Translations under genes and position numbers: made by a program
The notes under the pieces: generated by a model
What the model was told of the DNA's origin: nothing
What the model saw: the letters and a program-made list of their open reading frames with translations, nothing else
Database searches by the model: none
Part shown: piece by piece, positions 24,459 to 62,671 of the stretch
How positions within the stretch are numbered: position 1 is the first letter of the stretch
Layout: every line of letters starts with the position of its first letter
Origin: an uncultured Acidobacteriota bacterium
Lineage (GTDB): Bacteria; Acidobacteriota; Thermoanaerobaculia; Gp7-AA8
Reading direction: 5' to 3'
DNA length: 64,000 nucleotides
NCBI GenBank assembly: GCA_963822445.1
Contig: CAWGHO010000002.1
Coordinates: forward strand, 192,001 to 256,000

Positions 24459-25073
24459 ATGTTCATCACATTCGAAGGAATCGAAGGCTCCGGCAAGACG
24501 ACGCAACAGCGCCTCGTAGCCGAAGCCTTGCGCGCGAAAGGCCGCACGGTCGTCGTGACGAAAGAGCCGGGCGGAACACCGCTGGCCGATCGCATTCGCG
24601 CGATCCTGCTCGACAGCGCGAACGTCATCGATCCCATCGCCGAAGTCTTTCTGTTTGCTGCCTCGCGCCGGCAACACACGACCGAGGTGATCGAGCCGGC
24701 GCTCGGGCGCGGCGAGATCGTCCTGTGCGATCGCTACGCGGATTCCACGCTCGCGTATCAGGGATTCGGCCGGCTGATCGAGCTCGATCGCCTGCGTACG
24801 CTAAACGAGTGGGCCACGGACGCGCTCGTACCGAACGTCACGCTGTTGTTCGATCTGCCGGAAGAGACCGGACTGACTCGCGCCAACTCGCGCAATGCCG
24901 GCGCGGCGCAGGACGAGGGGCGCTTCGAGGCCGAGGATCTTCGGTTTCACCGGCGGGTGCGGGAGGGATACCTGGCCATGGCTGTCGCGGAACCGAATCG
25001 CTTTCGCGTGATCGATGCGAATGGAACGGTCGATGAGGTTTTCGCACGGACGCGGGAGGCGTTGAAATTATGA
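24459..25073 (+). CDS. tmk: Thymidylate kinase
   Basis: FITFEGIEGSGKTT, KEPGGT, CDRYADSTLAYQG. Confidence 0.96.
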   Translation: MFITFEGIEGSGKTTQQRLVAEALRAKGRTVVVTKEPGGTPLADRIRAILLDSANVIDPIAEVFLFAASRRQHTTEVIEPALGRGEIVLCDRYADSTLAYQGFGRLIELDRLRTLNEWATDALVPNVTLLFDLPEETGLTRANSRNAGAAQDEGRFEAEDLRFHRRVREGYLAMAVAEPNRFRVIDANGTVDEVFARTREALKL

Positions 25074-25933
25074 CCACTTCCTCTCTCGTCCTCGACACCG
25101 CCCGCCGCGGCGAGCTTCATCACGCGGTCATCCTCTACGGCCCCGATCCGCAGCCGCTGCGCGACCTGGCCGTGCGCATGGCCAAGACCCTGAACTGCCT
25201 CGAAGGCACGACCGGCGATCAGTGCACGTCCTGCGTTCGCATCGACCGGCGCATTCATCCCGACGTGCATTTCACGGAGGTCGCGGGGGACAAGAAGCAG
25301 ATCTCCATCGAGCAGATCCGGGACATCGTCGCCGGCGCGACCATGCGGCCGTACGAAGGGCGGAACAAGGTTTTCGTCATCGATCCCGCGGACGCGCTGA
25401 GCATCTCCGGCTCGAACTCGCTGCTGAAGACGCTCGAGGAGCCGACACGCGACACGACCTTCATCCTCCTCACCCGCTCGCCCGATCTGCTCCTGCCGAC
25501 CATCCGCTCGCGCGCGCAGAAGGTCTACATCAGCGAGTCCGCGCGCCTGCTGACCGGGCCGCTCGAAGCGCGCCGCATCCGCGACGTGGCGCTGCTCGAG
25601 GAAGGCGAAGATCTGGCGGCGAGCATCCTCGATCTGCTGCATCGCTACGCCGCGCGGAATGAATCGGCGGCGTTGCTCGCGCTCGCCGCGGTCGTCTCCG
25701 ACCACGAGCCGGCGAAAGATGCCATCGCGCTCCTGGGCGCAATCCTCTGCGACGTTGTGGCCCTTGATCCGAGCGAGTCGCTCGATGGAAGGAAGCTCGC
25801 CGAGATCCGCGAGCGCATCCCGCGCGAGCGACTGCTCGCGGCGGCGGATGCGGCGATGGGCGCGATCCGTTGGCTTAACGTCAACGCCGACGTGCGTCTG
25901 GTGGTGGAGCAAGTCGTCACCGCACTGGTTTGA
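25070..25933 (+). CDS. holB: DNA polymerase III delta' subunit (divergent)
   Basis: After tmk; LNC..CTSC, HPDV, ISIEQIR, NSLLKTLEEP, LLPTIRSR. Confidence 0.85.
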   Translation: MTTSSLVLDTARRGELHHAVILYGPDPQPLRDLAVRMAKTLNCLEGTTGDQCTSCVRIDRRIHPDVHFTEVAGDKKQISIEQIRDIVAGATMRPYEGRNKVFVIDPADALSISGSNSLLKTLEEPTRDTTFILLTRSPDLLLPTIRSRAQKVYISESARLLTGPLEARRIRDVALLEEGEDLAASILDLLHRYAARNESAALLALAAVVSDHEPAKDAIALLGAILCDVVALDPSESLDGRKLAEIRERIPRERLLAAADAAMGAIRWLNVNADVRLVVEQVVTALV

Positions 25934-25985
25934 GCGACGCTTTGGCCCAAGCCTTTGGCAACAAGCGCTGCCGGCCGTGCCGGCC

Positions 25986-26019
25986 AAAAAAGAAACCCCG
26001 CCGTTTCCGGCGGGGCTTC
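25986..26019 (-). terminator. Intrinsic terminator of a minus-strand transcript
   Basis: Minus strand: GAAGCCCCGCCG-GAAA-CGGCGGGGTTTC followed by TTTTTT. Confidence 0.85.
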
Positions 26020-26180
26020 AAAATCTACTGGATGGGTGGTTCGCGAACCGCTTGGGTGGCGAGCTATTCGGGTCGGTAAGATTCAAGGAAGAATTCAAAC
26101 TGCGGGGTCATCAAAGGCAGGCTGTTGAGACAGAAAGCTGTTCCCGCCTGCCCATCCAGTAACTCAGTTCTCATCGTTGA
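25986..26180 (-). ncRNA. Candidate structured small RNA (or 36-aa small-ORF mRNA), family not recognised
   Basis: TATAAT at 26191-26186, perfect 11-bp closing helix (26026-26036 with 26151-26161), internal hairpin, terminator; no long ORF. Confidence 0.5.
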
Positions 26181-26185
26181 AGCGC

Positions 26186-26239
26186 ATTATAAACACAGAT
26201 TGTGAAAAATTTCTCAATGTAACTGGCTTGTGACAAGCC
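26186..26239 (-). promoter_or_regulatory. -10 box with adjacent Rex/CRP-type operator and a second palindrome
   Basis: TATAAT (minus, 26186-26191); TTGTGAAAAATTTCTCAA at 26200-26217; GGCTTGT-G-ACAAGCC at 26225-26239. Confidence 0.65.
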
Positions 26240-26315
26240 CTTCACGCGCTTGGGGATACGCCTTTTTCGCTGATCGGGCAATTGTGTAAAGCAAAACGGG
26301 CGTTCGGTCACCAGA

Positions 26316-26365
26316 ATTGCCGAGTTGGGGGTTGTCGGGTTGCCGGGTTCTCAGGTTGTCAGGTC
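26316..26365. repeat. One-sided tandem octamer array (GTTGNCRG-type)
   Basis: attgccga gttgggg gttgtcgg gttgccgg gttctcag gttgtcag, just past the GerMN gene stop. Confidence 0.7.
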
Positions 26366-26372
26366 TGTGACC

Positions 26373-26912
26373 TCACCGGAATCGCGGATCCACGAGCTCT
26401 TTCATCGGCTCCACCGACCGCGCCAGCGAGACATGCCCGCCCAGCGTCTCCGCCGGTCCGCCGTTGATCAGCACCCGCACCCGCCGCCCCTCGGTGAAAT
26501 TCGCGCTGATCGTCTGCGCCAGCGAGTGCGCGGCCATCAGCTCCCGATGGCTTCCCGTTCCCCAGCCCTGGGTCAGGGTCGGGCCGCCGAGGTCGACGAC
26601 TACCGTTCCGCCCGGCAGGAGGTAGGTGCCGCGCACGACCGTGTCGTCGGGAAACAGCCGCATCACGGTCGTGCTCGACGGGCCTTTCATCAGCTCGCGA
26701 ACCACAATCGGCACCGCGGCCGCGCTGTTTTCAGGAAGGGCGATGTTGCGAGGCTCGGCGGTGAGCAGCATCTGCGGCGACTCGTAGAAGAGCTGCACCG
26801 TGCGCACGGCCACCTTGTTGTGCGCGGCCAGGTTCGCGCCCGGCTTCTCTTTTCTCTTGCACCCGCCGGCAACCACCATCACGGCCAGCGCGAGTACTGC
26901 AGCCCGCCTCAC
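26373..26912 (-). CDS. GerMN-domain lipoprotein
   Basis: Lipobox VAGGC; VRELMKGPS, VVVDL, VRVLINGG, TLGGHV; downstream of an amidase. Confidence 0.85.
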   Translation of the reverse strand: MRRAAVLALAVMVVAGGCKRKEKPGANLAAHNKVAVRTVQLFYESPQMLLTAEPRNIALPENSAAAVPIVVRELMKGPSSTTVMRLFPDDTVVRGTYLLPGGTVVVDLGGPTLTQGWGTGSHRELMAAHSLAQTISANFTEGRRVRVLINGGPAETLGGHVSLARSVEPMKELVDPRFR

Positions 26913-28462
26913 TGCGTCGCCGTCCTCGGCTGTGCCTGCGGCGCGGTCGCCGTCGCGGCGGGCGCCGGCGCGGGAGCGGGCGGCGCGGGCTGGATGAGTC
27001 CGATGCGCGTTTCGTAGTCCGTCTTGTAGCGCTCCACCGCGCGGGTGATCGCGGCGACCATCAGCGACTGGAACTCGCCGGTCTGCAGCTTCGCCTCTTC
27101 TTCGGCATTGCTGATGAAGCCGACTTCGACCAGCGCCGCGGGCATCGTCGCGCCGACGAGCACTTTGAACGGCGCCTGCTTCACCCCGCGATTGCTGACG
27201 CCTGTGGCCGCGTTCATCTCTTCCTGAATGGCCTGCGCGAAACGGCTCGACTCGCCGATGTACGCCTGCTGGGCCAGGTCCCAGAGAATCAGTTTGAGAT
27301 CGCTCGTCGGATCAGCAGCGGCCGCTGACGGCGAGGACGCGTTCTCCAGGTCCGCGGCGCGCTTCGCCAGTTCGTCCGAAGCTTCGAGGGAGAGGAAGTA
27401 AGTCTCCGAGCCCTTCGCGTCCTTCACCACGGCCGCGTTGAGATGGACCGAAAGGAACAGGTCCGCTTTGTACTGATTGGCGATCGCCGTCCGCTGATCG
27501 AGCGACACCAGGGTGTCGTCATCGCGCGTAAGCACGACCCGAGCGCCCGTCTTCGCCGCCAGCGAATCGGCGAGGCGGCGGCAGATCGCGAGGGTCAGGT
27601 CTTTCTCCATCAACCCGTTCGTGCCGACCGCGCCGACTTCCTTCCCGCCATGCCCGGGATCGAGCACGATCGTGCGGATGCCGGGGAGCTCCTGCGACTT
27701 CGGCGTGATCAGCGGCTGGGTCGTGCCCGGAACGAGCGGCGCGCCTTTGCGCAGATCGAGCACGATCCGCTGCGGGTTCTCGAGCTGATACGCATCGGCG
27801 ACGACGTCGGGGGAGGTCAGATGGATCGTCAGATCGTTCGCTGTAAACGCGAGCCGGGCGATGTGCGGATCTTCGTAGGACTGCTCGCCGAACGGCGCGC
27901 GCACCGGCGACTTGAACTTGATCGCGTAGGCCTGCGCCTCTTTGACGATCGAATATTCGACCGTTCCGCTCAGCGTGAGGACGACCTTGGAGATGCCCTG
28001 CACGTTGGCGACGGACGCGGAGATCGAGACTGCGTCGCGCTGTTGGGCGCGAACTGCCAGGAGATGCGCGGCCGGATCCCAGGTCACGTCCATCCCCGCG
28101 GCTTTGGCGAGGAATCCCTGGAAGAACTGCCAGGGAACGTAGGGCGCGCCTTCGATCGCGATCGGAGGCACGGGCATCTCGATCAGGTCATCGCGCACGA
28201 CGCCGAACCGGCTGTCCGACGCGAAGGCCGCGACGGTGTTGCCGAGGGTGACTTTGTAGCCGTTCGCGTCGGGAGTGAGCGTGCCGCCGAGGCCGGTTAC
28301 CACTTCCGCGGCGGCGACGTAGGTCTGTCCCGATTGCACGACGTACGTGAACGGCGTGTCGCCCGCGGAAGTGCGGAGCGTTCCCTGACCCGACGATTGC
28401 GCGAGAACGATCGAGGCGACGGCGAGGAGAAGGAGAGTACCGAGAACGAGGAGACGTTTCAT
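26909..28462 (-). CDS. N-acetylmuramoyl-L-alanine amidase (Amidase_3)
   Basis: Signal peptide, AMIN-like LENPQRIVLDL, IVLDPGHGG, EKD, FLSVHLNA, LVEVGFISN. Confidence 0.93.
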   Translation of the reverse strand: MKRLLVLGTLLLLAVASIVLAQSSGQGTLRTSAGDTPFTYVVQSGQTYVAAAEVVTGLGGTLTPDANGYKVTLGNTVAAFASDSRFGVVRDDLIEMPVPPIAIEGAPYVPWQFFQGFLAKAAGMDVTWDPAAHLLAVRAQQRDAVSISASVANVQGISKVVLTLSGTVEYSIVKEAQAYAIKFKSPVRAPFGEQSYEDPHIARLAFTANDLTIHLTSPDVVADAYQLENPQRIVLDLRKGAPLVPGTTQPLITPKSQELPGIRTIVLDPGHGGKEVGAVGTNGLMEKDLTLAICRRLADSLAAKTGARVVLTRDDDTLVSLDQRTAIANQYKADLFLSVHLNAAVVKDAKGSETYFLSLEASDELAKRAADLENASSPSAAAADPTSDLKLILWDLAQQAYIGESSRFAQAIQEEMNAATGVSNRGVKQAPFKVLVGATMPAALVEVGFISNAEEEAKLQTGEFQSLMVAAITRAVERYKTDYETRIGLIQPAPPAPAPAPAATATAPQAQPRTATQ

Positions 28463-62595: not shown

Positions 62596-62671
62596 AGCCG
62601 CTTAGCTCAGTTGGTAGAGCATCACCTTCACACGGTGGGGGTCAACGGTTCGAGTCCGTTAGCGGCTACCA
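62596..62671 (+). tRNA. tRNA-Val (anticodon CAC)
   Basis: Acceptor AGCCGCT/AGCGGCT, D arm GCTC/GAGC, anticodon loop TT-CAC-AC, T arm AACGG-TTCGAGT-CCGTT, encoded CCA; 76 nt. Confidence 0.96.

Follow-up and report, generated by a model that had tools for sequence, protein, structure and literature searches.

In a 64,000-nt stretch of a contig from an uncultured acidobacterium (the window), the gap between holB and a gene for a GerMN-domain protein holds what an initial annotation, made from the letters alone, took for an orphan transcription unit with a novel structured RNA. Our analysis supports that proposal, and we regard the element as almost certainly a real and new non-coding RNA gene. 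Its core, ~194 nt, lies at 25986..26179 on the minus strand, and a covariance model (CM) match covers 25986-26185 with 193.6 bits. Upstream on the minus strand are the GerMN-domain gene (26373..26912; Pfam Germane, 8e-10) and an Amidase_3 gene (26909..28462; Pfam Amidase_3, 4.4e-54), while holB, for DNA polymerase III delta' (25070..25933; Pfam DNA_pol3_delta2, 1.4e-40), is on the plus strand and is therefore convergent with the RNA. The gap had been described as AT-richer than its surroundings, and its GC content is indeed 0.44-0.55 against 0.61-0.73 in the flanks. Each of the features listed in the initial annotation was found at its place on the minus strand: a TATAAT, a long-range helix, a pyrimidine-rich middle, a terminator and an open reading frame (ORF). 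The TATAAT, read from the sequence, is the predicted -10 hexamer (block E; 26186..26191, minus), from which the RNA 5' end is predicted at 26179 +/- 2; the 3' end is the U tail of the intrinsic terminator (25986..26019, minus), which has a 12-bp stem with a GAAA loop (26019-25992) followed by a T6/U6 tail (25991-25986). The pyrimidine-rich block is TTCTTCCTTGAATCTTACCGACCC, at 26093-26070 on the minus strand. From the TATAAT-proximal start the RNA would be ~194 nt long, but some molecules may start upstream of the TATAAT. Folding of the 200-nt RNA beats 200 of 200 dinucleotide shuffles (z = -3.19).

Comparative analysis gives a fold in which P1, a closing helix with an invariant core, is followed by an internal loop, then by P6, a helix that covaries, and lastly by an apical domain of ~80 nt. 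P1 pairs GUUACUGGAUGG (26152..26163, minus) with CCAUCCAGUAGA (26024..26035, minus), and corresponds to the 11-bp helix noticed earlier between 26151-26161 and 26026-26036, which is present and reads, in the P1 register, 26162-26152 with 26025-26035. P6 was found with RNAduplex in 49 homologues, by setting the segment after P1 against the segment before the P1 3' strand; in the source genome it joins CGGGAACAGCUU (26135..26146, minus) to AAGCGGUUCGCG (26042..26053, minus) by 10 pairs, interrupted by two 1x1 mismatches. Enforcing P1 and P6 gives the source RNA a fold at -65.8 kcal/mol, 1.9 kcal/mol above its minimum free energy of -67.7. The segment GCAGG of the internal loop between P1 and P6 (P2 5' strand; 26147..26151, minus) can pair with CCUGC in the apical domain (P2 3' strand; 26117..26121, minus), pairs that were verified in the source genome, and because P2 crosses P6 this would be a pseudoknot. 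The inner hairpin of the initial annotation is accordingly there as a pair of complementary strands, GGCAGGC (26152-26146) and GCCTGCC (26122-26116), but does not stand as a simple hairpin, being crossed by the better-supported P6. Helix P4 (CUUG with CGAG) and hairpin P5 of an earlier model, R1, were dropped because their 3' strands belong to P6.

A second CM, R2, was built from P1, P6 and the terminator, and 100 matches to it were aligned, 85 of them distinct. P1 has 12 pairs with 94.9% of cells paired, and its core CUGGAU/AUCCAG is identical in 84-85 of the 85 distinct sequences, with a compensatory change from U-A to C-G in one species. The five pairs of P2 are formed in 92.2% of cells, the middle one being A-U in 61 sequences, G-C in 7, G-U in 4 and unpaired in 13 of 85. 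P6 is paired in 84.2% of cells, and all 11 of its model pairs have changed on both sides; compensatory variants include CGAGAAU/AUUCUCG, CGAGAG/CUCUCG, CAGGAA/UUCCUG, GCGUGC/GUACGC, CUGCUU/GAGCAG and CAGCUU/GAGCUG, with GGAAAU/GUUUCC and GAGAAA/UUUCUC in distant genera. The terminator, with 10 model pairs, is paired in 97.3% of cells and has both-side changes at 9. Over the whole R2 alignment pairing reaches 92.1% of cells (85.3% in shuffles), and both-side changes occur in 25 of 38 pairs against 13.4 in shuffles, a value reached by 0 of 500 shuffles. Shifting the partner columns by 1-3 positions drops pairing to 31-49%. In an alignment of 32 sequences made from sequence only, 77% of the P6 cells are paired and 5 of its pairs are compensated. 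Near-invariant sequence, CUUCCUUGAAUCUUACCGA, is found in the apical domain (26134-26054); the conserved block of this domain, GAAUUCUUCCUUGAAUCUUACCGACCC (26070..26096, minus), contains the anti-Shine-Dalgarno-like CUUCCUU and is predicted to be single-stranded. Within this block CUUCCUUGAA, CU and ACCGA do not vary among 25 congeners and hardly vary across the main family, and no consistent or conserved pairing partner for it was found among the homologues. The 15 most distant sequences have an added GNRA-capped hairpin.

The RNA is widespread within one order. By blastn, one orthologue was found in each of the other genomes of the genus (24/24) at 68-77% identity, with the proteins flanking the RNA in the same congeners at 59-84%, and in none of 16 genomes outside the genus. 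Such conservation lies far outside what chance would give. CM R1 detected the RNA in 118 of the 127 genomes searched from the order; these span 41 of 43 genera, and almost every one has a single, full-length match. By family, the counts are 115/123 (f1), 1/1 (f2) and 1/2 (f3). Among genomes of at least 90% completeness and at most 5% contamination, 83 of 86 carry it, and six of the nine genomes lacking a match are less than 90% complete. A genome draw across the class gave the RNA in 35/35 genomes of f1 and 1/1 of f3, and weak matches of 19.8-38.4 bits in 14 of 114 genomes of other families. None of this is convincing as homology: the six of the 14 that were examined are terminator-like hairpins with neither the P1 motif nor the synteny, and the holB neighbourhood of five genomes from four other families held nothing above 7.6 bits with filters off. 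A search for the exact helix-core pattern over 185,579 species genomes (one per species) returned 62 loci. Of these, 58 are from Acidobacteriota labelled Thermoanaerobaculia, 'gp7' or Candidatus Gilichinskyi, the last of which belong to class Thermoanaerobaculia, and all 58 match CM R2 (28 and 30 in two sets). The four other loci are chance occurrences, with no R2 match except one at 12.4 bits. Within the searched range, then, the RNA family is restricted to one order of uncultured soil Acidobacteriota (NCBI Thermoanaerobaculia, 'gp7'). Three unpublished genomes enter these data, G002 with one alignment row and one count, and G076 and G128 in tallies only; our claims are independent of them. 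Separately, four of the weak matches, from other orders of the class (L182, L184, L185 and also L181), lie in a shared leader-like element, CCGGyTCCGGCGCGGCC...GCGyCCGGwTCGG, which is followed by an CCCCGCCGGAAACGGCGGGG terminator and a gene starting MRVAIQG, and which may be a cis-regulatory attenuator.

We compared the RNA with the 4227 models of Rfam 15, both at gathering thresholds and in a permissive scan with E up to 10. At gathering thresholds the sole passing match in the window is a tRNA at 62596, and 20 homologous loci gave no match, so that the Rfam check suggested at the outset has been run and brings up no family. The permissive scan of 25850-26420 gave sub-threshold matches only, of at most 25.1 bits and driven mainly by the terminator, and that of a divergent homologue, L096, gave the same result, with at most 20.9 bits, mostly on the terminator. 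Absent from the matches at E up to 10 are 6S (RF00013), the motifs RF01686 and RF01687, Y RNA and any riboswitch or ribozyme family. The RNA is not 6S, signal recognition particle RNA, RNase P or tmRNA, none of which the initial annotation had recognised in it, and all four were located elsewhere in the source genome above threshold, the true 6S at G000:C3:1262063-1262261 with 64.6 bits. The TROVE domain (PF05731) has no match in the source genome, which is 94.7% complete. The passages returned by full-text literature searches contain no account of such an RNA, and report no RNA regulator for the Thermoanaerobaculia 'gp7' bacteria. The family is a previously undescribed stand-alone structured RNA, and as such a new family of a known general kind.

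Upstream of the RNA gene, four further conserved blocks precede the -10 hexamer on the minus strand. Block D (26201..26216) is a palindrome, TGAGA-N6-TCACA, replaced in distant genera by GTGAAA-NN-TTTCAC; block C (26217..26236) is a direct repeat, TTGTCAC-N4-CAGTTAC-AT (consensus among homologues TTGTCAC-N4-CTGTTAC), kept in the main family and in most distant genera; block B (26253..26259) reads GTATCCC (family consensus GTATCTC) and is kept in the main family only; and block A (26283..26311) is promoter-like, with GTGACC-N17-TACACA around a palindrome CGAAC-N4-GTTT. A consensus promoter scan found no full sigma-70 site at the RNA in the source genome, where no canonical -35 stands 17 nt from the TATAAT. 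In homologues, the upstream alignment shows -10 variants TAtAaT, TAgAAT, gATAAT and TAtAcT, ~21-30 nt before P1 where this could be measured by regular expression; these variants were read from the alignment by eye, and a strict TAnnnT pattern caught 21 of 49. Several species read TTCACA-N17-19-TATAAT. The motif GAAAnnTTTCAC lies upstream of the RNA gene in 45 of 49 homologues and TTTCAC[AG]A in 49 of 49, and the palindrome is 8-11 nt from the -10 in most species and 18-19 nt in others, an arrangement that reads TTCACA-N18-19-TATAAT.

The same palindrome, GTGAAAnnTTTCAC, occurs at the same short distance from a -10 upstream of a gene for a membrane-anchored PPIC-type peptidyl-prolyl isomerase (PPIase) of 318 amino acids (aa) (G000:C3:992106-993062), and of 30 family loci with an orthologue of this gene, 24 have GAAAnnTTTCAC no more than 220 nt upstream of it. 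This putative operator is rare: GAAAnnTTTCACAA has only three sites in the 6-Mb source genome, and looser patterns returned mostly coding-sequence noise. The simplest reading would be that the RNA and the PPIase gene share a regulator. The third palindrome-like site, TGGGAAAACTTTCACAATCT at G000:C1:316060 (minus), lacks both an evident -10 and a gene that clearly follows it. The 5' leaders of the PPIase gene (G000:C3:992055-993062, L203/L204; orthologues L205-L233) contain long inverted repeats that differ from species to species and consist of tandem 7-8-mers, often together with an CGTCAACG motif, and a receiver-domain gene and a saccharopine-dehydrogenase-like ORF lie downstream of it. Perfect TGTGA-N6-TCACA palindromes occur five times in the source genome (e.g. 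C3:1184821, C1:328426 and C1:661027), which suggests a CRP-type regulon.

Block A is confined to the main family, where its consensus is TTGACC-N17-TAnnnT around CGAAC-N4-GTTC. The box nnGACCGAAC is present in 30 of 49 homologues, in 20 of 49 with a TAnnnT at 16-18 nt; among 15 distant sequences the box occurs in one and the full promoter form in none. The palindrome CGAAC-N4-GTTy resembles the Gram-positive SOS box. We rejected a LexA box here, and make no SOS claim, as the lexA and recA upstream regions of the source genome are without such a box; CGAAC-N4-GTTCG itself has 36 sites across the source genome. The lexA upstream region (G000:C2:883100-883360) has a direct repeat ACTTACGC-N5-ACTTACGC beside TTGACT-N17-TACATT, and that of recA (G000:C2:1366600-1366900) has AACGTC-N7-AACGTC, neither with GAAC-N4-GTTC. 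An ORF of 46 aa at 26311-26171 (minus) that runs over the promoter blocks was also rejected, since its variable positions cluster in contiguous runs instead of marking third codon positions; it stops at the TGA of the conserved AACGATGA.

Among the public sequencing runs listed, 20 of 24 contain part of the stretch, from 18 studies, and six of them are RNA libraries; the DNA runs are mostly soil and rhizosphere metagenomes from many studies. We examined contigs from four metatranscriptome runs of four studies, which cover 25988-26184 (running 21 nt past the terminator), 26015-26164, 26049-26245 (plus 2 non-fitting letters, to 26247) and 26068-26245. Such short contigs are consistent with an abundant small transcript. 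The one that reaches 26184 and the two that end at 26245/26247 all extend upstream of the start predicted from the TATAAT at ~26179, so there may be a longer isoform, arising from blocks A/B or by read-through and starting 65-100 nt further upstream; the ends at 26245/26247 are 7-8 nt downstream of block B. That no RNA contig covers the holB and GerMN stretches was not counted as evidence.

Two accounts would deny that this is an RNA gene in its own right. One is that it is merely the 3' untranslated region (UTR) and terminator of the amidase-GerMN operon, the fallback that the initial annotation had offered, perhaps yielding a processed 3' fragment and having no promoter of its own. Its position invites that account: within the genus the order amidase, GerMN, RNA and convergent holB holds at 25 of 25 loci (with holB inside the examined stretch in 23 of 25), and in other genera GerMN lies upstream on the same strand at 35 of 40 loci and holB convergent downstream at 34 of 40. 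The contigs that extend past the predicted start and the missing full sigma-70 promoter in the source genome would fit it as well. But in two loci from two genera, L074 and L081, the RNA and all of its upstream blocks, block A included, are inverted together within the same gap, so that the module has the orientation of holB and is convergent with GerMN; inversion of the whole module argues that the RNA is not a 3' UTR. Moreover, the -10 and the TTTCACAA block stand at a fixed distance from P1 in 49 of 49 homologues, whereas the distance from the GerMN stop to the RNA varies from ~100 to more than 800 nt, and TTCACA-N17-19-TATAAT is seen in several species. We think the fallback very unlikely. 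We would say the same, with as little hesitation, of the other account, in which the transcript is the mRNA of the 36-aa protein (ORF 26064..26174, minus) or of a type I toxin, or is a dual-function RNA, readings that had all been floated for it. In its favour, 22 of the 25 congeners retain the ATG at 26174, and the peptide's opening residues (M-x3-LLDGQ) appear conserved. That apparent N-terminal conservation coincides with P1, however, the ATG motif is absent in distant genera, and no Shine-Dalgarno sequence is visible before the ATG in the source sequence. From the conserved ATG, seven of the 25 congeners stay in frame through the conserved block, seven read it in another frame and 11 stop earlier or have no ATG; lengths range from 2 to 42 aa and the block is read in three frames, and since neither frame nor length is kept we rejected this ORF as a gene.

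If the RNA is an independent unit, what might it do? The role we consider most likely, at about an even chance of being right, is that of a trans-acting regulator that works by base pairing. The RNA would use its exposed, near-invariant CU-rich apical stretch (CUUCCUU...AUCUUACCGA) to pair with mRNAs at their purine-rich ribosome-binding regions, and Hfq would probably assist, since the terminator hairpin ends in a U tail and the genome has an Hfq-like gene. A dimeric DNA-binding protein that recognises GTGAAAnnTTTCAC beside the -10 might control synthesis of the RNA. As the same operator precedes the gene for a membrane-anchored, parvulin-type PPIase, the RNA may belong to an envelope protein-folding regulon, and we speculate that it might be the RNA arm of a small regulon of this kind. 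Several observations weigh against this role. The Hfq-like gene (G000:C2:2424184-2424342) is a weak match, 29.5 bits against a cut-off of 27. A scan of the rest of the genome for exact complements of the apical block gave at most 13 nt, a length expected by chance, and no special duplex was found between the RNA and the start regions of three neighbouring genes, long-window RNAduplex energies being dominated by GC content. The most conserved parts are the folded core and not the presumed seed, because P1, P2 and P6 are kept everywhere while the 15 most distant sequences have the CU-rich block only in the looser form CYUCC...AUCUCACC; an invariant helix sequence together with a pseudoknotted core is what one would sooner expect of RNAs that are bound by protein or have a tertiary structure than of simple base-pairing small RNAs (sRNAs). 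The supporting data have limits too: the pair counts come from an alignment made to fit the structure of the model, and the RNA contigs, which reach upstream of the predicted start, are assembled from runs chosen for holding the sequence and neither prove transcription nor define the RNA ends.

Because no target was found and the core is more conserved than the seed, a protein-bound particle stays a serious rival, one that we find possible but clearly less probable than the base-pairing role. The RNA would then be part of an RNA-protein particle peculiar to this lineage, or would sequester a protein, in the manner of 6S, Y or CsrB-type RNAs, with a protein reading the invariant P1 and the pseudoknotted P1/P2/P6 junction and with mRNA pairing not its main activity. 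It would explain why neither strand of the P1 core varies in 85 distinct sequences though the flanking proteins are 42-50% identical in distant genera, and it fits the complex, order-wide pseudoknotted fold with its GNRA-capped hairpin in distant genera, as well as the result that neither the exact-complement scan nor the neighbouring start regions yielded a target. Yet the locus does not indicate a partner protein: the amidase, GerMN and holB neighbours are housekeeping genes, among which the RNA is invertible. Nor do the known models help, as the source genome has no TROVE/Ro gene, a true 6S exists elsewhere in it and the RNA sequence has no repeated CsrB-type GGA motifs. A bolder version, which we put forward with more doubt, is that the RNA forms the core of a new order-specific housekeeping-type particle of the rank of 6S or Y, though its pseudoknotted fold is unrelated to theirs. 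Some protein would read the invariant closing helix, and expression of the RNA would be turned on along with that of an enzyme for envelope protein folding. Improbable, to our minds, is a stand-alone ligand-sensing or catalytic RNA whose compact pseudoknotted core binds a small molecule or does chemistry. The invariant nucleotides do cluster at the P1/P2/P6 junction, and such clustering, like the GNRA-loop hairpin of distant genera, recalls riboswitch aptamers and small ribozymes. But Rfam has no riboswitch or ribozyme match, and a cis-acting leader would be expected to precede a gene, whereas here the RNA is followed by its terminator and convergent holB (23/25 and 34/40 loci), with no same-strand gene downstream.

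Set beside known systems, the RNA shares features with several and matches none. The raiA motif RNA is ~200 nt long and pseudoknotted. Like it and like Acido-1 (RF01686) and Acido-Lenti-1 (RF01687), earlier RNA motifs from Acidobacteria (PMC2864571), the present RNA is stand-alone, without a tied downstream gene, lineage-restricted and covarying, with its function open. It differs from these three in having no Rfam match, in its taxon and in its architecture of P1, internal loop, P6 and large apical domain. Spot 42 and CyaR are Hfq-dependent trans-acting sRNAs with CRP palindromes at their promoters. With them our RNA has in common an intrinsic terminator with a U tail, a conserved unpaired segment and an own promoter, here predicted, and its block D palindrome TGAGA-N6-TCACA is shaped like the CRP consensus TGTGA-N6-TCACA; but it is about twice as long and far more structured, has an invariant closing helix, and keeps its palindrome ~9-10 or 18-19 nt from the -10 depending on the species. 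MicA, RybB and MicL (sigma-E) and CpxQ are envelope-stress sRNAs co-regulated with periplasmic folding factors, and the rare operator shared by the RNA and the PPIC-type PPIase is reminiscent of sRNAs in a regulon with surA, ppiD and fkpA, an analogy that rests on one shared motif and comes with no sequence similarity. 6S (RF00013) is of similar length and is likewise closed by a long helix between its 5' and 3' ends, but where 6S has a central bubble between two long helices this RNA has a small internal loop and the ~80-nt apical domain. Y RNAs likewise have a closing stem of conserved sequence and a large pyrimidine-rich loop; unlike those that go with Ro (Rsr), this RNA is not encoded beside rsr, and the genome has no TROVE gene.

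The module is also bordered by repeats. Segments at 25934-25985, between the terminator and holB, and at 26328-26365, after the GerMN stop and composed of CAACCCG-like heptamers, flank the RNA and are multi-copy: the 439-nt gap gives 44 matches in the source genome and many more in congeners, nearly all to these two segments. In many congeners (loci L016-L032), though not in the source genome, a palindrome GTAACCGGTTAC directly follows the RNA terminator, and it also lies within the 21 letters by which one RNA contig (run X15) continues beyond the terminator.

Having found a conserved RNA of this kind, the next question is what it means for its hosts. The Thermoanaerobaculia 'gp7' are common in soils and known almost solely from metagenome bins, and the analysis leaves them with a CM usable for annotation and with a testable fold. 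The operator common to the RNA and the PPIase gene gives a first handle on a regulon and on its regulator. If the RNA does prove to be protein-bound, it would be a new class among the few widely conserved bacterial RNA-protein particles. Whichever way it acts, an RNA that more than 90% of genomes have kept, across 41 genera, and whose covarying, pseudoknotted fold includes an invariant helix, is probably important to the physiology of its host order.

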